DNA of 36,110 nt from Candidatus Uhrbacteria bacterium (GCA_016209345.1 JACQWH010000011.1:1-36110), one strand, 5' to 3'. Numbered from the stretch's first letter, positions 4,394 through 19,964 are shown. Notes: generated from the sequence alone by a model not told the origin. Made by a program: numbers and translations.

Positions 4394-4434
4394 ACGGGGG
4401 TTAATGCCAGTTTTGACAATTCAAAAATTATTTT

Positions 4435-4491
4435 TGTCATCCCGGCGCGTGAGGGCCTGTCCCCGACTGGATCGGGGACCGGGATCCAGTC
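4435..4491 (+). repeat. hairpin repeat copy R2 (expanded, nested hairpins)
   Basis: TGTCATCCCGG...GTCCCCGA-CTGG-ATCGGGGAC-CGGGATCCAGTC. The outer stem is ATCCCGG/CCGGGAT and the inner 8-bp stem is GTCCCCGA/TCGGGGAC. Confidence 0.8.
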
Positions 4492-4530
4492 TATAACTAT
4501 GGCGTTTCCTTATACGGATTTATTTTTAGT

Positions 4531-4558
4531 CTGGATTCCCGCCTCCGCGGGAATGACA
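4531..4558 (-). repeat. hairpin repeat copy R3
   Basis: CTGGATTCCCGC-CTCC-GCGGGAATGACA. Confidence 0.8.
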
Positions 4559-4903: not shown

Positions 4904-8318
<3,415 letters not shown>

Positions 8319-10585: not shown

Positions 10586-12367
10586 ATGCCATCGAATACT
10601 AGGACATGCCAAAAATGCCAGACCCGGTTTCCTATTGAGGAACGTGATCTGGCATTTTATATTTCCGTGAATGTACCGGAGCCGACGTTCTGTCCAACAT
10701 GCCGTGCGCGTCGTCGTATGGCGTGGATCAATTTTCATAGTCTTTACAACAGGAAACTCACCGATGGTGGTAAAAACGTTATCTCAATGTATTCGCCCGA
10801 TAAGCAGTTTAACGTAGTTGAGGATAGCGCGTGGTGGGGCGATACCTATGACCAAACTAGCTACGGCCGTAATTATGATTTTTCGCGTCCTTTTTTTACG
10901 CAATTCCAAGAATTGTTGCGTGTCGCGCCGCTCCCCCATCTTCATCGTGATTTTTCCCGCATGGAGAACAGCAACTATTGTAATGCGTGCACGGGGCTAA
11001 AAAACTGTTATCTCTGTATGGCTGCCGATGAAGCAGAGGACACGTACTATGGTTTTAAGATTGAAAAACTTAAAAATTGTGTTGACGTATCCTTCACCAA
11101 CAACTCGGAGCTGTGCGGAAACAGCGCTTTTCTATCGGAATGCTACAATGTTCAATTTTCAGAACACTGCGAAAACTCCAACGATCTCTCTTTTTGCAGT
11201 GATTGCAACGGGTGTACATCGTGCGTGGGATGTATCAATCTGCGAAATAAGTCGTATTGCATTTTTAATGTTCAATACGACAAGGACGAATATGAGAACC
11301 GCGTTAAGGAGATGCGGCTTGACACGTTCTCCGCTGTCTCAAAGATCGCCTCTGAAGCGCAGCAATTCTTCCGCACACAGCCACATCGCTTCATGCATGG
11401 TCGCAACAATGTTGATGTAACCGGAGATTTTATCTATAACTCTAAGAATGTTACCGACTCCTACGCCGTACAGTTTTCAGAAAATTGTCGATTCGTAAAC
11501 TCTCTCTCCGCCATAGATGAGCGGAATGCCGATGCGTACGACTGGAGTCAATTTGGCATTGGTTCGGAGCGTATCTATGAGTGCTCCTGGTGCGGATTGC
11601 GATGCAATACCGTGCTCTTTTCTTTTTGGAACTACTATGCGCACAATCTCACCTACTGCTTTGGGTGTCATTCATCAGACAATCTCTTTGGGTGTATTGG
11701 CTTAAGAAAAAAGCGCTACTGCATTCTCAATAAGCAATATTCAAAGGAAGATTATGAGGAGCTTGTTGAAAACATTCGCAAACAGATGGCGGATGTTCCC
11801 TATACGAGTACCGACGGGACAATCTACCGCTATGGCGAGTTCTTTCCGTCGGAACTTTCGCCGTTTTGCTACAACGAGACCGAAGCGTATGATCATCTTC
11901 CCCTCACCAAAGACAGCGCGGTAGCGAAGGGATTCAGCTGGTACGATGCACCGCAGCGACAGCCCATTGCGGGAGCCGTTTCTTCAAAGGATATCCCTGA
12001 CTCTATTGATGCTCTCACGGCAGGTTGTGCATCCTCGACATTTATTTGTTCATCGTATACCGATGATGGTGAAGACGCAATTATGCGTGGATGTACGAGA
12101 TACTATCGATGCATCCCCCAAGAAATCTCATGGTATCGGAAGAAACATATTCCGCTTCCGCGGTCATGTCCGCAATGCCGGTATCGCGAGCGACTCAAAC
12201 ACCAACCGCTTTTTCGTTCGTATGACCGCGCGTGCATGTGCCATGAGCAGACGGGGCACGATTGGCATCAGGGTGTGATATGCGAAAAACAATGCGTGAC
12301 ATCATATGCTCCTGACCGAGTAGAACCCATCTATTGCGAAAAATGCTATTCAGCGGTAGTGTATTAA
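10586..12367 (+). CDS. Cys-rich multi-zinc-ribbon protein of unknown function, paralog 1
   Basis: 593-aa ORF with about 39 Cys by my count. N-terminal CQKC-x3-F-x-I-x3-D-x2-FY...PEPTFCPTCRARRR. The C-terminus repeats the same module (YRCIPQEISWYRKKHIPLPRSCPQCRYRER...CEKC). The central Cys ladder is present twice (CxGC..L[RK].K.YCI.N.QY.K[DE][DE]YE). The stop is 3 nt before the gatB ATG. Confidence 0.7.
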   Translation: MPSNTRTCQKCQTRFPIEERDLAFYISVNVPEPTFCPTCRARRRMAWINFHSLYNRKLTDGGKNVISMYSPDKQFNVVEDSAWWGDTYDQTSYGRNYDFSRPFFTQFQELLRVAPLPHLHRDFSRMENSNYCNACTGLKNCYLCMAADEAEDTYYGFKIEKLKNCVDVSFTNNSELCGNSAFLSECYNVQFSEHCENSNDLSFCSDCNGCTSCVGCINLRNKSYCIFNVQYDKDEYENRVKEMRLDTFSAVSKIASEAQQFFRTQPHRFMHGRNNVDVTGDFIYNSKNVTDSYAVQFSENCRFVNSLSAIDERNADAYDWSQFGIGSERIYECSWCGLRCNTVLFSFWNYYAHNLTYCFGCHSSDNLFGCIGLRKKRYCILNKQYSKEDYEELVENIRKQMADVPYTSTDGTIYRYGEFFPSELSPFCYNETEAYDHLPLTKDSAVAKGFSWYDAPQRQPIAGAVSSKDIPDSIDALTAGCASSTFICSSYTDDGEDAIMRGCTRYYRCIPQEISWYRKKHIPLPRSCPQCRYRERLKHQPLFRSYDRACMCHEQTGHDWHQGVICEKQCVTSYAPDRVEPIYCEKCYSAVVY

Positions 12368-13879: not shown

Positions 13880-13902
13880 GGTCTTGTCCCACTATCCCAT
13901 CC

Positions 13903-13931
13903 TTGTCATCCCGCCGAAGGGCGGGAACCAG
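13903..13931 (+). repeat. hairpin repeat copy R5 (TTGTCATCCCGCCGAAGGGCGGGAACCAG)
   Basis: It matches the reverse complement of copy R9 (17425-17453) at 29/29 positions. The stem is ATCCCGCC/GGCGGGAa with loop GAAG. It lies between gatB and the second Cys-rich gene. Confidence 0.9.
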
Positions 13932-13939
13932 ACAAAAAT

Positions 13940-15604
13940 ATGGATTCAAAAACAAAACAGTGCACCGCGTGCAATGCACATTATCAAATTGAACCGGAGG
14001 ATCTTGAGTTTTACCAAAAAATGAACGTTCCCGTACCGCGGTTGTGTCCCGACTGCCGTTTTAAGCGGAGAGCGCAGTTTCGCAATGAACGAATATTATA
14101 CAGCAGAACGTGCGACAAATGCCATAAAAACATTATTTCTGTCTACCATGAGGAATCGCCCTACACGGTGTACTGCCTTGAGTGTTTTGATGCAGACGAT
14201 TGGGATGCTTTCCAATATGGCGCTCGGTATGACGCCAGTAGACCCTTCTTTGAACAAATGGATGAGCTATTGAAAAGGGTTCCAAAAAAAGCCCTCCTTA
14301 TTACTGGCGGCGACAATAACGTGAATAGTGACTATACAAACGTGGCTGCAAATAATAAGAATTGCTATCTGCTCTTTAATACTGCTTACTGCGAAGATTC
14401 GATGTATTCGCGCGGGATCAAGGGGTGTCGCGATACGGTTGACGCCTATTTCGGTATTGAAATGGAGCGTTGCTATGAGGCAGTGAATGTTCACAAATCA
14501 TCGGGGGTCATATTCGGACACAATGTAACAAACTGCGTAGATTCATGGTTCCTCCTCTCGTGCACTGACTGCATAAACTGTTTTGGCTGTGTCAACCTCC
14601 GCCATAAGAGCTACCATTGGTTTAATGAAGAACTTTCAAAAGATGACTATGAGAAGCGGCTTACTCACGTAAAGGGAAGCTATCAACGGATGAATGAGAT
14701 GCGCAAGAAATTTGAAGCGTTCGCACTCCAATTTCCTCATCGGGAAAACAACAACATGAAATCAGAGGACTGCACCGGCGACTATCTCTTCTCATCAACG
14801 GCCTTGCGTGATTGCTATGAGATTACCGAAGGAGAAAACTGCAAATACATGTTCGCGTCCAAGAATATCAAGGACTCGTATGATACGCTTGGCTATGGCT
14901 ATGGAAGCGAACTGCTCCTTGACTGCGCGGCAACAGGGTATGCCAATCGTGTCATCGGCTCGTATTGGGTTGAGAATGGCCATGATTGCGAGTATTGCTT
15001 TTTTACGCTCTCGTCGGAATATTGTTTCGGTTGTGATGGATTAAAGAAAGGGAAATTCTGCATCCTGAACAAACAGTATAGCGAGGAAGAATATCACGCA
15101 ATTCGAAAAACAATTAGTGAGGAGCTTACGCGTGATGGTGAGTACGGATTATTTTTTCCTCCTCATATTGCACCATTTGCCTATAATGAAACAGTCGCGC
15201 AGGACTATATGCCTCTTGCAAAAGACGAGGCGCTTGCACAAGGGTTTCGCTGGCAAGAAAAGCTGCCAATGACAACAGGTGCCGAAACGCTTGCTCCCGA
15301 ATCTATCCCCGACCACATCATGCAGGTGACAAGCTCTATCACAAAGGATATCCTTGCGTGTCTTGACTGCAAGCGAAATTATAAAATTACGCCCAAGGAA
15401 TTTGCATTTTATCAAAAAATGTCGCTTCCCGTTCCTCGGCAATGCTTTAGCTGTCGGCATGTGGACAGAATCAAACGCCGTGGTCCAATGAAACTTTTTG
15501 ATCGTTCATGCGCAAAGTGTTCTAAAGATATTCGCACGACATTCGCGCCACCCCGCACGGAGATCGTGTATTGTGTTGAGTGCTATCAAACGGAAGTAAT
15601 ATAA
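13940..15604 (+). CDS. Cys-rich multi-zinc-ribbon protein of unknown function, paralog 2
   Basis: 554-aa ORF with about 34 Cys. The N-terminal module CTACNAHYQIEPEDLEFYQKMNVPVPRLCPDCRFKRRAQFRNERILYSRTCDKCHKNIISVY...VYCLECF is repeated at the C-terminus (CLDCKRNYKITPKEFAFYQKMSLPVPRQCFSCRHVDRIKRRGPMKLFDRSCAKCSKDI...VYCVECY). It is colinear with paralog 1. Confidence 0.7.
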   Translation: MDSKTKQCTACNAHYQIEPEDLEFYQKMNVPVPRLCPDCRFKRRAQFRNERILYSRTCDKCHKNIISVYHEESPYTVYCLECFDADDWDAFQYGARYDASRPFFEQMDELLKRVPKKALLITGGDNNVNSDYTNVAANNKNCYLLFNTAYCEDSMYSRGIKGCRDTVDAYFGIEMERCYEAVNVHKSSGVIFGHNVTNCVDSWFLLSCTDCINCFGCVNLRHKSYHWFNEELSKDDYEKRLTHVKGSYQRMNEMRKKFEAFALQFPHRENNNMKSEDCTGDYLFSSTALRDCYEITEGENCKYMFASKNIKDSYDTLGYGYGSELLLDCAATGYANRVIGSYWVENGHDCEYCFFTLSSEYCFGCDGLKKGKFCILNKQYSEEEYHAIRKTISEELTRDGEYGLFFPPHIAPFAYNETVAQDYMPLAKDEALAQGFRWQEKLPMTTGAETLAPESIPDHIMQVTSSITKDILACLDCKRNYKITPKEFAFYQKMSLPVPRQCFSCRHVDRIKRRGPMKLFDRSCAKCSKDIRTTFAPPRTEIVYCVECYQTEVI

Positions 15605-15613
15605 ATACGGCAT

Positions 15614-15904
15614 ATGCCAGCCGAACCATCACGACCAGATAAATCAATTTTTGACCATCCTGAGATCCCGGAACTAAATTCTATTGAAAAAATTATGTAT
15701 ATAGCAGAAATGCTTTCTATGCGCGGTGTTCATTGGGATAGCGGTATATGGAAAGTACCCATGGATATAACAAACCTTTCAAAAATTGGCCCATGGCTTA
15801 CAGTGTGTCAGCGGGAGGGTTTAAAAATTGTAGATATTACAAAAGATATGGATCCAGTAAGTGCAACTCCTTGGATGTATTTCAAGCGTGAAGATGCATT
15901 CTAG
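15614..15904 (+). CDS. hypothetical small protein
   Basis: 96-aa ORF starting 9 nt after the paralog 2 stop. It is visibly more AT-rich than its neighbours, and its last 23 nt overlap the convergent 3' end of miaA. No family recognised. Confidence 0.35.
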   Translation: MPAEPSRPDKSIFDHPEIPELNSIEKIMYIAEMLSMRGVHWDSGIWKVPMDITNLSKIGPWLTVCQREGLKIVDITKDMDPVSATPWMYFKREDAF

Positions 15905-16943
15905 CCATCATGAATTTTTTTATATTTCTAACTCCCTGAGAATATGACGTTACGTATGTAATGTCATTTTGCTTTCGATACCAGGTGAGTTGGCGGCGTG
16001 CATAGTGATGAATGGCAAATTTCAAACGTTCGATCATTTCTTTTCTTGATCCCCCGGCAGAGCCGGGCAAGCTGGCCATCTTGCCTGCCGCAGGCAGGGG
16101 TCGGGATGACAAGGAATCCAGATATTCGCTGATGAATCGGCTTTCAAGCCCCAGTCCTTGGAGCCATTTTTTTGATACACCATTTTTACGCAGTCGCTCC
16201 ACCTCACGAATCATTCCTTTTTTAATTCGCTCGTCCACTCGTTTGTCAATACGTTTGTAAAGTGTCGCTCGCGGTACATCAATGCAGAGTTGAAGGCAAT
16301 CATAGCGCTTTGTCATTCCGATCCCCTCCTTGTCATCCCGACCGGAGTGGAGGGATCTACCAGTTTGTAAATACCATTCTGACGGCTTCCTTTTTGTCGC
16401 ACGGTAAATTTCCAGCGCGCGCATAACACGCCTCTTATTATCGCGATCGTTCCAGTCGCGCATATTTGTATCAGCTTGATACAATTGTTTTTGGAGCACG
16501 GCCAGTGATTTTTTTTCTAGCCTATTTCTGTATTCATGATCCGGTGGAACACTTGGAATATCATAATCATAGAGAACAGCGCGCACATAGAGCTGTGTGC
16601 CCCCAACAAGAAATGGCACTTTCCCCCTGCTCCAAATGTCCTGAATCGCACGATCTGCACATGTTCTATAATCAGCCAGCGTGAACGGCTGGACACCGCC
16701 CTTCCACCGCTTTGGCGGCGTGACAATATCAAGGCAATGATGCCGAACAATGTTCTGCTCTTTCTTTGTTATTTTTCCGGTACAGAGGTTAAGCTCTTTG
16801 TAGATCTGTCGTGAATCGGCCGAGACAATTTCACCGTTAAACTTTTTTGCAAGCTTAATGGCCATGTCTGACTTTCCCGACGACGTCGGCCCGATGATGG
16901 CAATTACCTGGTTATCGTGTGACTTGACATTATTTTCAGCCAT
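15882..16943 (-). CDS. miaA: tRNA dimethylallyltransferase (i6A37), carrying two in-frame repeat-derived insertions
   Basis: P-loop IIGPTSSGKS, SADSRQIYKELNLCTGK, LVGGTQLY, RALEIY and YARRQLTW are all MiaA hallmarks. It is longer than E. coli MiaA at two places that coincide with repeat copies R6 and R7. Confidence 0.88.
   Translation of the reverse strand: MAENNVKSHDNQVIAIIGPTSSGKSDMAIKLAKKFNGEIVSADSRQIYKELNLCTGKITKKEQNIVRHHCLDIVTPPKRWKGGVQPFTLADYRTCADRAIQDIWSRGKVPFLVGGTQLYVRAVLYDYDIPSVPPDHEYRNRLEKKSLAVLQKQLYQADTNMRDWNDRDNKRRVMRALEIYRATKRKPSEWYLQTGRSLHSGRDDKEGIGMTKRYDCLQLCIDVPRATLYKRIDKRVDERIKKGMIREVERLRKNGVSKKWLQGLGLESRFISEYLDSLSSRPLPAAGKMASLPGSAGGSRKEMIERLKFAIHHYARRQLTWYRKQNDITYVTSYSQGVRNIKKFMMARMHLHA
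16084..16121 (-). repeat. hairpin repeat copy R6, inside the miaA coding frame
   Basis: The minus strand reads CTGGATTCCTTGTCATCCCGACCCCTGCCTGCGGCAGG (GTCATCCCG head + CCTGCC/GGCAGG hairpin). It is translated as LDSLSSRPLPAAG in miaA. Confidence 0.8.
16311..16362 (+). repeat. hairpin repeat copy R7 (compound), inside the miaA coding frame on the opposite strand
   Basis: TGTCATTCCGATCCCCTCCTTGTCATCCCGACCGGAGTGGAGGGATCTACCAG has two GTCAT[TC]CCGA heads and a GATCCC(C)TCC/GGAGGGATC stem. Its reverse complement is translated as TGRSLHSGRDDKEGIGMT in miaA. Confidence 0.8.
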
Positions 16944-17093
16944 AGTAATATGATAGTAAAGACTTTCGGCCTGTGGTTTATACTACCACGCGTAGCGGAA
17001 GGTCTTCTATAATGAACTCTCTGCACGAGGGTTTATTTAATTATTATCGAAATACTCTAAAGATACGACGCGCTGTGATCCTGCCATCTCCAC

Positions 17094-17122
17094 TTGTCAT
17101 CCCGCCGAAGGGCGGGATCCAG
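17094..17122 (+). repeat. hairpin repeat copy R8, the left terminal inverted repeat flanking the GIY-YIG gene
   Basis: TTGTCATCCCGCCGAAGGGCGGGATCCAG, ending 3 nt from the GIY-YIG stop codon (17126-17128). Confidence 0.9.
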
Positions 17123-17125
17123 TCC

Positions 17126-17416
17126 CTAAATTAAATCCTCATACAAATCCCTCCACTCTGGGTTCTGTTCCTCAATAATTCGAAGTTTCCATATCCGGTT
17201 CCATTCTTTTAGAGCCTTCTCTCGAGCGATTGCATCCTTGACGTCCTGGTATTCCTCGTAATATACAAGAAGTTTCACGTGATATTTCTGTGTAAATCCA
17301 GATATCAGCCCCTCTTTATGCTCCCATACTCGTCGCGCCAGATCATTCGTGACACCAATATAGAGCGTACCATTACGTTTGCTTGCGACGATATAGACAA
17401 AATAGGAATTCATCAT
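17126..17416 (-). CDS. GIY-YIG nuclease family protein (UPF0213/COG2827-like, stand-alone URI domain)
   Basis: 96 aa. YFVYIVASKRNGTLYIGVTNDLARRVWEHK...REKALKEW matches GIY-(x10)-YIG, the conserved R and H/E, and the C-terminal E..(I/L)K.W motif of the small bacterial GIY-YIG family. Confidence 0.85.
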   Translation of the reverse strand: MMNSYFVYIVASKRNGTLYIGVTNDLARRVWEHKEGLISGFTQKYHVKLLVYYEEYQDVKDAIAREKALKEWNRIWKLRIIEEQNPEWRDLYEDLI

Positions 17417-17424
17417 TTTTTGGC

Positions 17425-17453
17425 CTGGTTCCCGCCCTTCGGCGGGATGACAA
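17425..17453 (-). repeat. hairpin repeat copy R9, the right terminal inverted repeat flanking the GIY-YIG gene
   Basis: CTGGTTCCCGCCCTTCGGCGGGATGACAA. Its reverse complement matches R8 at 28/29 and R5 at 29/29. It begins 8 nt upstream of the GIY-YIG ATG. Confidence 0.9.
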
Positions 17454-17518
17454 GAGTGAATGGTGGAAATGACGCAGACTGTGCGCTCGGGATGACAAGA
17501 ATGAACGGTGGAAATGAC
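17444..17518 (+). repeat. two 30-nt direct repeats (45-nt period) extending from the R9 end
   Basis: GGGATGACAAGAGTGAATGGTGGAAATGAC (17444-17473) and GGGATGACAAGAATGAACGGTGGAAATGAC (17489-17518) match at 28/30. Confidence 0.8.
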
Positions 17519-17586
17519 AAAGGATGAAAATTAATCAGGAACAAGCTGGCGTAATATTGATATCCGCATCCTCAACCACGCAACCA

Positions 17587-18495
17587 TTAAAAATAGCAAC
17601 CCCAAGAATCCATATCAACCGATCTGACAAACGACAAGTCATCTTTGATTTTCTTCTTCCAATAGTATCCTTTATCCTCATCCACGGTAAGCATCTCAAA
17701 ATAGCTTTCGTCGTTCGCTTGAGAGGGAAACATATCTTCAGGAAAAACATCCTCCGCTGAGGAAATGAGATTATTCAATCGAAGATATGTTTGAAGCATC
17801 GCCTTTGCCGAGCGAGGAACGTGTATAATGAGCCCGCTGGGAATTTCAGTTATCTCGCAGTCAAAATTTGGAGTCGAATTATCTAGACGATTATTGAATA
17901 AAGGGATTGGGATTGTGGGCGGTTTTTGATAAAAAATATTATTTGAGTATAAATAAATATTGATGAAAAAAAGTGTAGCCGAGAATATGGCTATAATGAT
18001 ATTATATCGTACTTTCCTCCGCCGTGAATAATAGAGAGGTACTAAGCAGAGCGCGCAAACGCTAACGATTAAAAAAAATAAGTTTGCGGAAGTATAGAAA
18101 ATATCTTGGAGTGGTCTAGAATAACCAAATGCAGGATTATAATCGAAAATACTCTCAAGTGTGTAGTTTATGCCGCCTGCGAGAAGAAAAAATAGAGCGG
18201 CGGAGATATAGAACGTATAGACAAAAGATGTTGCTTTTGTTCGTGTAAAGAAGCGCCTAAGCATAAGGACTAGAGCACATATGCCTATCACCGCGACGAC
18301 ATAGAGCAAGACAACTCTTCTTAAAGGGTACGAATCACGAATAGCCGAAAGAGAATCGGTCAACTCCAACATTAGATATGTCCCCACAACAACAAAAAAA
18401 ATTGCAGAGATGATAAAAAAAATGTTCAACACGAATATGAAAAAATGCTTCACTGTTTTTATGATCATACCGCTATTGTAGAATAAAGAATCCAC
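17587..18495 (-). CDS. hypothetical polytopic membrane protein with a C-terminal soluble domain
   Basis: 302-aa ORF with about 6 hydrophobic helices in the first ~200 aa. It lies in a clearly AT-rich stretch. No family recognised. Confidence 0.5.
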   Translation of the reverse strand: MDSLFYNSGMIIKTVKHFFIFVLNIFFIISAIFFVVVGTYLMLELTDSLSAIRDSYPLRRVVLLYVVAVIGICALVLMLRRFFTRTKATSFVYTFYISAALFFLLAGGINYTLESIFDYNPAFGYSRPLQDIFYTSANLFFLIVSVCALCLVPLYYSRRRKVRYNIIIAIFSATLFFINIYLYSNNIFYQKPPTIPIPLFNNRLDNSTPNFDCEITEIPSGLIIHVPRSAKAMLQTYLRLNNLISSAEDVFPEDMFPSQANDESYFEMLTVDEDKGYYWKKKIKDDLSFVRSVDMDSWGCYF

Positions 18496-18578
18496 TCAAG
18501 CAAGCGAATGCCACGAAAGCATGAACTGTGATCGTACTTGATGCGCGATCCAACCATAAGATTAAAATCATTTTTAGC

Positions 18579-18632
18579 ATGGATCCCAGCCGGAGTTTAT
18601 CCCGAGTATTTCCGAGGGACAGGGATGACAGG
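18579..18632 (-). repeat. hairpin repeat copy R11 (degenerate), overlapping the miaB 3' end
   Basis: The minus strand reads CCTGTCATCCCTGTCCCTCGGAAATACTCGGGATAAACTCCGGCTGGGATCCAT (GTCATCCC head ... GGGATCCA tail). It encodes the last residues PVIPVPRKYSG and the stop of miaB. Confidence 0.7.
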
Positions 18633-19964
18633 GGCGGAGCCATACAATATCCACTCCACCGCGCGGTCGATGGTGACGCTCTGTATCGTGCCGATGAACG
18701 ATTCATCGCCTCTGAAAATAACGCGCTTCATCTCTCGCGAGTTTCCACTGCAAAGTCCCTTTTCGCACGACTCAACCAAAACCGATACGGTGCGGCCGAC
18801 ATATGCCTGATTCTTGCGAAGCGCTGTTTCCTCCATCAACCTTTGCAACTCATTCCAGCGTCGCTTCTTCTCCAGACGTGAAACATCGTCTTTATACATC
18901 CGCGCGCCGGCGGTGCCGGAACGAACGGAATATTGCGCGGTGTAGGCAATGTCAAAGTCGCATTCCCTATACAAATCCATTGTCTGTTCAAAATCCTCAT
19001 CTGTTTCACCGCTAAATCCAACAATAATGTCAGTGCCCAGCGCGATGCCGGGTTTTACTGCACGAATCTCTTTAACTTTATCAATATAATACTCTCGCGT
19101 ATAGGGGCGATTCATACGCTTCAGCACCGTATTACTCCCCGCTTGCACGGGCAGATGAATATAGTTGATGTCCTTTGGCATTGTAAGCGCCGCGACGGTC
19201 TGCTCATCCATATACTGTGGGTGTGGCGCAGTAAAATGAATCCTTTCTATTCCATCAATCTGATTAACCTCCCACATGAGCGCCGCAAAGCCATTTTTTG
19301 AGTAATCAAGGGGATTGTCTTTTGAAAAATTTTCTTTGTCTGGCGGATTATACAAATTAACGCACTGTCCCAAAAGCGTTATCTCAAGGACACCTGAGAC
19401 GGCAAGACCGCGCGCCTCATCAAGCACATCAATAAGCGGCCGATCTTTTTGCCGACCGCGGGCATAGGGGACCACACAGTATGTGCAAAATTTATTGCAC
19501 CCATTGCTAATCGCAAGATACGCCTGAAATGTATTCGAATAGGAGGGTGCGATTTTCAGATAATGATCGTACTCATCTCCCACCCCGGACGGATCAATCA
19601 ACGTTGGATTGAGCCCGCTCAAAGCTCGCGGAAGATGAATCATCTCCTCGGTTGGAAAGAACAAATCAACAGCCGAGAGTCGCTCCCTGATCTTACCGTC
19701 ATGATCGCGCCCCGCCATACACCCCGTGATTGCCACGATGAGATTGGGATTGTTTTTTTTGAGTTGCTCAAGAGTGCGATGAATACCGTATACACGATCT
19801 TCCGCCTTTTGACGCACAGCGCATGTGTTATAGATCAACACATCTGCCCGCTCCTCATCATCCGTGCACACAAGACCGCTCCGAGTCAAAATTGAGCTTA
19901 ATCGTTCAGAATCCGACTTGTTCATCTGGCATCCGAATGTGATGATTTTATACATTCCGGGCAT
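18597..19964 (-). CDS. miaB: tRNA-i6A37 methylthiotransferase (radical SAM MTTase)
   Basis: N-terminal UPF0004 domain (TFGCQMNKSDSE, YNTCAVRQKAE), radical-SAM CNKFCTYCVVP, and a C-terminal TRAM domain (VGRTVSVLVE...). An alternative start is at ATG 19955. Confidence 0.9.
   Translation of the reverse strand: MPGMYKIITFGCQMNKSDSERLSSILTRSGLVCTDDEERADVLIYNTCAVRQKAEDRVYGIHRTLEQLKKNNPNLIVAITGCMAGRDHDGKIRERLSAVDLFFPTEEMIHLPRALSGLNPTLIDPSGVGDEYDHYLKIAPSYSNTFQAYLAISNGCNKFCTYCVVPYARGRQKDRPLIDVLDEARGLAVSGVLEITLLGQCVNLYNPPDKENFSKDNPLDYSKNGFAALMWEVNQIDGIERIHFTAPHPQYMDEQTVAALTMPKDINYIHLPVQAGSNTVLKRMNRPYTREYYIDKVKEIRAVKPGIALGTDIIVGFSGETDEDFEQTMDLYRECDFDIAYTAQYSVRSGTAGARMYKDDVSRLEKKRRWNELQRLMEETALRKNQAYVGRTVSVLVESCEKGLCSGNSREMKRVIFRGDESFIGTIQSVTIDRAVEWILYGSAPVIPVPRKYSG

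Follow-up and report, generated by a model that had tools for sequence, protein, structure and literature searches.

The miaA Locus

The stretch of DNA considered here (the window) comprises 36,110 nt attributed to Candidatus Uhrbacteria (GCA_016209345.1, JACQWH010000011.1:1-36110), and its gene of interest is miaA, which encodes the tRNA dimethylallyltransferase MiaA and lies among a family of short repeats that includes well-formed hairpins. The MiaA of the window carries two extra loops that are very probably translated remnants of this mobile repeat family, known elsewhere as CGTC-tagged REPs or Ssn-related motifs (SRMs). Canonical copies of the repeat flank a gene for a small GIY-YIG nuclease that lies 180 bp upstream of miaA. 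The top database relatives of the window MiaA are MiaA proteins named Candidatus Uhrbacteria (Patescibacteria/candidate phyla radiation), and the gene order dnaE, thrS, miaB, miaA, Cys-rich protein, gatB, L1, L11, nusG, secE, and gyrB is common to the window and to Uhrbacteria contig L001, with the synteny of miaA with miaB preserved.

Judged from its sequence, miaA looks like a functional gene. The protein matches Pfam IPPT at 1e-59 over the whole profile (positions 1-243 of 243), and its score of 201.9 bits against TIGR00174, the NCBIfam MiaA equivalog, exceeds the cut-off of 148.65 and places it within that family. All invariant columns of an alignment of 22 relatives are present in the window MiaA, in agreement with the first-pass annotation of this DNA, which had described the MiaA motifs as intact. 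Comparison with the L001 gene gives a dN/dS of 0.15 (323 aligned codons; dS ~1.2, near saturation), and miaA is under purifying selection. An AlphaFold2 model built from 120 sequences has a mean predicted local distance difference test score (pLDDT) of 89.8, and the top Foldseek matches of the model are MiaA structures, including the Escherichia coli MiaA-tRNA complexes 3foz and 2zm5, with a TM-score of ~0.83 on the target. The enlarged MiaA is presumably active as an enzyme.

Two Derived Loops in MiaA

The closest orthologue of the window MiaA is P0002, the product of the L001 gene, which is 70% identical by BLASTP and 74% identical in the alignment of 22 relatives. Both extra segments are absent from P0002, in the protein alignment and in a codon alignment alike. 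In the latter, the first segment (site A) amounts to 14 extra codons (16329-16370; net +42 nt) and the second (site B) to 16 extra codons (16050-16097; net +48 nt), both multiples of three, while the DNA flanking the two sites is strongly conserved. The wider family gives the same picture: the loop at site A is 21 residues long in the window and 6 residues long in 74 of 120 homologues, the loop at site B is 25 residues long as against 6-7 residues in 76 of the 120, and the solved MiaA of Bacillus halodurans (2qgn) aligns with gaps opposite both extra segments. The claim of the first-pass annotation that MiaA contains two additional segments with the reading frame kept is upheld, and the orthologue alignment that it had proposed as a check finds a nearest relative without either insert.

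Structural modeling, likewise proposed as a check, places both inserts in low-confidence coil loops. The insert at site A is modeled as coil at residues 192-214, with pLDDT below 50 at 196-206, between a helix (188-191) and a strand (215-221) of high confidence; the insert at site B is modeled as coil at residues 280-299, with pLDDT below 50 at 291-295, between two equally confident helices (266-279 and 300-323). These two stretches, 196-206 and 291-295, are the sole internal parts of the MiaA model with pLDDT below 50. Both loops represent a derived state and lie between conserved secondary-structure elements. Further, segments of this kind are few. Over the ~20 kb shared with L001, and counting proteins that are at least 57% identical, the window-specific segments of at least 6 residues are the GyrB intein, three repeat-derived segments in MiaA and MiaB, 11 residues near the C-terminus of DnaE, and 6 residues in a protein of the FtsW/RodA family.

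Repeat Sequence within the Inserts

The repeat family is recognized in the window by a 12-nt tag, CTTGTCATCCCG, of which six exact copies and two with one mismatch are present, against 0.15 expected. The shorter tag TGTCATYCC has 12 matches, against 0.52 expected, and 7 of these 12 lie within 16111-18630, that is, in the 2.5 kb around the nuclease unit. The exact 12-mer is present in both miaA inserts, at 16102-16113 (-) in site B and at 16329-16340 (+) in site A, and the two inserts have 17 identical bases in common, TCCTTGTCATCCCGACC. At site A, the copy (R7) runs antisense to miaA, carries a further tag at 16311-16319, and closes with a 3' end reading ...GGGATCTACCAG at 16363. The same double-tag layout is found in the intergenic copies at 17455-17530 and in the Uhrbacteria-like contig L088. 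At site B, the degenerate sense copy (R6) proceeds from its tag to an end, GGGGGATCAAG at 16045, that resembles the canonical end GGGATCCAG, and its interior consists of three small GC-rich hairpins. An R6-like copy in contig L089 was also considered; on reading, its internal hairpin proved different, and the resemblance was taken as coincidence.

The extent of the two copies bears on the proposal in the first-pass annotation that both segments are encoded exactly by repeat DNA. For R7, the interval originally given (16311-16362) agrees with that derived here (16309-16363). For R6, placed at 16084-16121, the proposal is only partly right, because that interval spans only about the first 12 codons, roughly one half of the insert at site B. 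The most likely limits of the R6 element are 16113 and 16045. The miaA copies retain the unpaired TGTC tag that, with CGTC and CCTC, marks the family, and they keep only ~5 bp of stem (ATCCC/GGGAT), short of the 8-9 bp of published members, around larger interiors. A terminator scan of 15500-18700 returned no terminator-like site at either miaA repeat copy.

Recurrent Insertions at the Same Loops in Relatives

The DNA of eight other MiaA genes was read, and the same two loops prove to be occupied by repeat DNA in other lineages. At site B, L090 holds a pristine in-frame copy, AATGTCATTCCCGCAAAAGCGGGGATCCAG, translated as NVIPAKAGIQ; L006 holds the copy of L090 with an additional 54 nt inserted in its loop; the copy in L005 differs in its stem and is read in another frame (CHPERSEGS); and the window copy is read in the third sense frame (LSSRP). 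Compared by stem and frame, the site B copies of the window, of L005, and of L090/L006 represent independent events at one loop. That other lineages have the same loops occupied by copies which differ in stem and use three frames argues that these are real in-frame insertions.

At site A, a GGRATGAC tag with identical junction and frame (G-M-T-[K/L]-R-Y) is present in the window, L002, and L004, and a decayed form in L003. In a neighbor-joining tree, the carriers of the site A insert do not group together, and for both the window and L002 a close relative without the insert exists. This pattern is compatible with a single old insertion and later losses and secondary growth, or alternatively with a strong preference for the target. 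A further example comes from a MiaA profile search of genome contigs, in which the MiaA genes listed were all distant (at most 41% identity) and included no closer relatives. Contig L052 (Moraniibacteriota, JBAWZR010000014.1) carries at 6524-6608, in frame at site A, an inverted pair of pristine copies, CHPALDAGSRFNCIQMQPGSPIESGMT, with the tags outermost and a 22-nt spacer, the cleanest example found of a miniature, geneless unit within a coding region. Among the 80 more distant MiaA genes listed, tags are present in L052 only, so that the phenomenon is concentrated in certain lineages.

Gene ends are remodeled as well. The C-termini of MiaA read into antisense copies in L001 (~10960-11023), L003 (~1000-1078), and L004 (~1075-1122), and the stop codon of the L001 miaA is the TGA within GGGATGACA. 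In the window itself, MiaB takes its final 12 residues (APVIPVPRKYSG) and its stop codon from the repeat-like copy at 18579-18630, and the L001, L005, and L006 orthologues have other C-termini.

Canonical Copies and the GIY-YIG Nuclease Unit

Three copies in the window, named here by their tag positions (13902, 17093, and 17454), are canonical and read TGTC / ATCCCGCC / GAAG / GGCGGGAT / CCAG, with the consensus CTTGTCATCCCGCCGAAGGGCGGGA(T/A)CCAG. Each has a stem starting with AT and a CCA tail, and the hairpin, with a stem of 8 bp (7 bp in the 13902 copy) and a 4-nt loop, folds well (z ~ -3.3 against shuffled sequence). All three fit the published SRM search pattern, HGTCWYN(0-2)YYVSBRHN(0-5)WNVSBRGN(0-2)RNCYNB, against 0.1 expected. 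The canonical 30-mer is free of stop codons in five of six frames, the sixth giving TGA, which is the triplet that terminates the L001 miaA. The coordinates of all copies and associated genes are collected in Table 1.

Table 1. The miaA gene, the nuclease gene, and the repeat copies of the window.
Feature	Position	Strand	Evidence and details
miaA, tRNA dimethylallyltransferase, 353 aa, intact open reading frame	15882-16943	-	Pfam, TIGR00174, AlphaFold2, Foldseek, dN/dS
Site A insert (R7), double-tagged copy antisense to miaA; most of loop LQTGRSLHSGRDDKEGIGMTK (residues 192-212)	16309-16363	+	Tags, 3' end, comparison with L001
Site B insert (R6 extended), degenerate sense copy; most of loop SLSSRPLPAAGKMASLPGSAGGSRK (residues 277-301)	16045-16113	-	Tag, end, comparison with L001
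ssnA-like gene, single-domain GIY-YIG nuclease, 96 aa	17126-17416	-	Pfam GIY-YIG 6e-17
Canonical copy, 3' flank of GIY-YIG gene, CTTGTCATCCCGCCGAAGGGCGGGATCCAG	17093-17122	+	SRM pattern; hairpin z = -3.3; arm of inverted repeat I1
Canonical copy, 5' flank of GIY-YIG gene	17425-17454	-	SRM pattern at 17425-17452; 12-nt tag 17443-17454
Further partial copies with tags, forming a 45-nt tandem direct repeat (D8), upstream of the unit	17455-17530	-	Tag at 17488-17499
Solo canonical copy between gatB and next gene	13902-13931	+	SRM pattern
Repeat-like copy giving MiaB C-terminal residues and stop	18579-18630	-	Tag TGTCATCCC at 18630
Intergenic inverted repeat pair, tags outermost, geneless, 41-nt spacer	4433-4558		Sequence reading, tags

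The Pfam GIY-YIG match covers residues 5-75 of the 96-residue nuclease, which has no other domain and in this respect corresponds to the single-domain Ssn proteins. Its open reading frame (ORF) lies between inverted copies with the tags outermost (inverted repeat I1; 47-nt arms, 83% complementary), which is the published SRM-ssnA-SRM layout. The same repeat-flanked arrangement is present in three Uhrbacteria-like contigs (L087, L088, and L089), next to different genes and without synteny. Homologues of the nuclease are abundant (7347 at E <= 1e-5), and the best are 65-93% identical and come from several phyla. Identity to the best homologues is still 65-75% in Ignavibacteriota, Omnitrophica, Nitrospinae, and Alphaproteobacteria, which is unusually high for such distance and suggests horizontal spread of the protein. 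The only sequence match of the nuclease in the PDB is a weak one, to the UPF0213 protein 1ywl (E = 0.0015), and a search of the neighboring ORFs with PADLOC and NCBIfam gave no match.

Several side observations concern this region. Some 1.65 kb separates miaB from miaA (region 17084-18495) and contains the nuclease unit and a 302-residue multi-pass membrane ORF without a family match. The two genes overlap in L001 and are ~40 bp apart in L006, and elsewhere the same spot holds a 205-residue ORF (L005) or a Fic protein (L002). The match I2 joins the solo copy (13902-13942) to the 5' flank of the nuclease gene (17414-17454) over 41 nt at 93% identity, the ATG included. As this match reaches the start codon, the repeat together with a short A-rich leader may supply a translation start region. 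The solo copy precedes ORF 13940-15604 (+), a CxxC-rich protein of 554 residues with a weak treble-clef zinc-finger match; with 87% identity to the L001 orthologue it ranks, behind MiaB (91%), among the best-conserved proteins of the shared region, and in L001 a tag lies ~50 nt upstream of the orthologue.

The geneless pair at 4433-4558 joins two different subtypes, one of which, TGTCATTCCCGCGGAGGCGGGAATCCAG, nearly matches the published consensus of the Neisseria NTS repeat. A second hairpin is nested in the loop of the left copy, and TTTGACAATT flanks the pair at distances of 12 nt and 22 nt, one occurrence on each side, which may be chance or may represent promoter boxes. Two further tags, at 6227 (gyrB) and 33199 (serS), were tried as insertions and set aside as probably chance, since no insertion is evident there against Pfam profiles or orthologues. 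The gyrB gene of the window does hold a selfish element of another kind. GyrB (4947-8318, +) is 1123 residues long, against 671-674 in relatives, and the difference is a 432-residue intein (residues 456-887, CFSGETKV...VFVHN, ~6312-7607, with a Pfam Intein_splicing match), a second kind of in-frame selfish element in a housekeeping gene of the window.

Relation to Known Repeat Families

CGTC-tagged REPs were surveyed by Di Nocera (2013; PMC3733652), who defined them by a CGTC tag (often TGTC), a stem of 8-9 bp starting with AT, a loop of 4-5 nt, and a CCA tail. The canonical window copies fit every feature given there for CGTC-1: a TGTC tag, an 8-bp stem starting with AT, a 4-nt loop, and a CCA tail. 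As in the survey, the window repeats are often paired, and copies at gene ends remodel C-termini. The survey reports intragenic, in-frame copies in several species and phyla, often as pairs or groups encoding 20-30 residues and sometimes twice per gene; it found the repeats in five phyla, mostly Alphaproteobacteria, and none in Patescibacteria, the lineage of the window, and MiaA is not among the decorated genes named in the passages considered. In contrast to these elements, the miaA copies of the window have degenerated, their interiors being larger and their stems weak.

The second related system is that of Ssn. According to Chenal (2025; PMC11893778), the SRMs comprise the NTS repeat of Neisseria (CGTCATTCCCGCGMAVGCGGGAATCYRG) together with related repeats from many phyla, and ssnA encodes a single-domain GIY-YIG protein of ~94 residues that cuts single-stranded DNA just upstream of the repeat, its gene being typically located between two repeats. 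The NTS-Ssn interaction lowers the integration of transforming DNA in Neisseria, and only 2% of the NTS of N. meningitidis lie inside genes (PMC11893778). The window resembles this system in the pattern match, in a ~95-residue single-domain GIY-YIG gene between inverted copies, and in the clustering of copies around that gene. The main text of the SRM/Ssn paper mentions neither Patescibacteria nor in-frame copies, and literature searches found no report of these repeats in Patescibacteria.

Rickettsia palindromic elements (RPEs) provide the closest parallel for the inserts themselves. They were first reported as ~150-bp elements restricted to Rickettsia (RPE-1 type, Ogata et al. 2000), and a review describes their in-frame insertion as compatible with protein conformation and function (PMC10969869). 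Like the RPE-1 type, the window repeats are selfish palindromic DNA in frame within conserved genes, and both miaA inserts are in-frame insertions tolerated by the fold of a conserved protein. The likeness to RPEs drawn in the first-pass annotation is apt. Unlike the RPE-1 type, the window units measure ~30-70 bp, belong to a family present in many phyla, and are accompanied by a candidate nuclease. The further contention, that a different repeat is involved, does not survive, because the canonical copies fit CGTC-1, and the survey equates CGTC-1 with Neisseria dRS3 and with RPE-6 of Rickettsia conorii, and CGTC-4 with RPE-4 (PMC3733652). As far as that description goes, the window repeat belongs to the same superfamily as some RPEs, the link being made through the survey and not through Rickettsia sequence. 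Similarly, the suggestion that in-frame insertion is here extended to a different lineage holds insofar as Patescibacteria are added. The phenomenon was already catalogued in several phyla in the survey, so the finding adds a lineage and not a phenomenon.

The REP/REPIN-RAYT systems and miniature inverted-repeat transposable elements (such as QMITE1 of Coxiella, PMC5896051) share with the window short hairpins, inverted pairs, a repeat-flanked single-copy gene, and occasional overlap with ORFs. They differ from it in the case of REP/REPIN-RAYT, the window enzyme being a GIY-YIG nuclease and not a tyrosine (HUH) transposase, and the tag being TGTC/CGTC and not GTAG.

Weighing the Alternatives

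Several points weigh against regarding the two MiaA loops as translated remnants of the repeat family. No same-species allele with an empty site was found, the 90% identity cluster of this MiaA having a single member. No target-site duplication was noticed when the sequences were read, a reading that did not include a systematic search. The R6 interior matches nothing else in the window in a search allowing up to three mismatches, so that only 12-17 nt of each insert are demonstrably repeated. R6 and R7 fold no better than shuffled sequence on either strand (z = -0.6 to -1.4); consequently the term hairpin-repeat, as used in the first-pass annotation, suits the canonical copies, which fold well, and suits the miaA copies poorly. 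Neither R6 nor R7 matches the published SRM search pattern, and they are therefore assigned to the family by tag, ends, and context alone. Finally, no mechanism of movement is known for the family: the survey states that no dedicated transposase was known for CGTC-tagged REPs as of 2013 (PMC3733652), and Ssn is known only to cut single-stranded DNA, with no joining activity (PMC11893778).

The alternative that best withstands the evidence accepts the repeat origin of the loops and holds that nearby copies, such as those of the nuclease unit, donated the repeat to miaA through recombination or gene conversion, with no discrete element having transposed. The tight clustering of copies around miaA, the 17-nt tag variant common to both inserts, the double-tag arrangements that recur in the family (in the window and in L088), and the want of a noticed target-site duplication, with the limit already given, would all suit such an origin. 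The pristine full-length copy in L090 and the inverted pair in L052, both in frame and with sharp junctions, look instead like insertion of whole units. Recombination is on this evidence an unlikely account, though one to be taken seriously, and the two models are not mutually exclusive.

It is appreciably less probable that the inserts have been put to use, whether as new functional loops of MiaA or as intragenic nuclease-binding sites that modulate recombination or uptake at the locus, a role similar to one proposed for the NTS around Neisseria genes. Repeated targeting of the same loops, retention of the GMT-[K/L]-RY junction in several relatives, and the reduced integration of transforming DNA through the Neisseria NTS-Ssn interaction (PMC11893778) could be so explained. 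However, the sequence, length, and frame of the inserts vary freely between lineages, close relatives lack them, the hairpins have decayed, and the loops are of low confidence in the model.

That miaA is a decaying pseudogene and the inserts a form of damage might be entertained for a gene with two insertions in a genome rich in selfish elements (the GyrB intein being one), but the full-length ORF, the retained invariant residues, the scores above curated cut-offs, the dN/dS of 0.15, the confident fold prediction, and the synteny with miaB make this very improbable. Hardly any credence can be given to the notion that the segments are ordinary variable loops resembling repeats by chance, for although both loops vary in length across the MiaA family, the exact 12-mers in both inserts, set against 0.15 expected window-wide, the 17 identical bases, the family-like 3' end of each insert, and the repeat-derived peptides spelled by long loops of other homologues (VIPAKAGIQ, for example) all speak against it.

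A Model for Retention and Spread

With the two loops taken as remnants of CGTC-tagged REPs/SRMs, their retention can be pictured as a selective sieve. Copies landing in genes are retained only if they add a multiple of three bases, need a stop-free reading frame, and have to lie where the protein tolerates a longer loop. The two inserts in miaA pass this sieve and have since decayed, leaving weak hairpins and a tag region as the only recognizable part. The GIY-YIG nuclease may drive the spread of the repeat. Inverted pairs with the tags outermost occur with a nuclease gene (17093-17454), without a gene (4433-4558), and inside the L052 miaA, and the existence of pairs both with the gene and lacking it suggests that the element has an autonomous and a miniature form, as the authors of the Ssn study also speculate (PMC11893778). 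That one transposable element, in autonomous and non-autonomous versions, underlies all three pairs is a tentative idea, somewhat doubtful on present evidence.

Implications

What is new here is the lineage (Patescibacteria), the gene, the recurrent occupation of the same loops, and the presence of a nuclease unit alongside; no new kind of element or mechanism is revealed. One locus joins three strands of literature, those on CGTC-tagged REPs, on RPE-4/RPE-6, and on Ssn nucleases, and extends all of them to Patescibacteria. The MiaA series, in which pristine, nested, decayed, and empty states of two loops are represented, provides material on how repeats move and how proteins absorb them. There is also a warning for annotation, in that translated repeat DNA accounts for many of the lineage-specific loops and C-terminal tails of these small genomes. 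Were the three pairs to prove versions of one transposable element, the missing mobilizing enzyme would be the Ssn GIY-YIG nuclease, that of the CGTC-tagged REPs, with Rickettsia RPE-4 and RPE-6 included, and Patescibacteria would be a lineage in which that element actively reshapes the loops and ends of housekeeping proteins.

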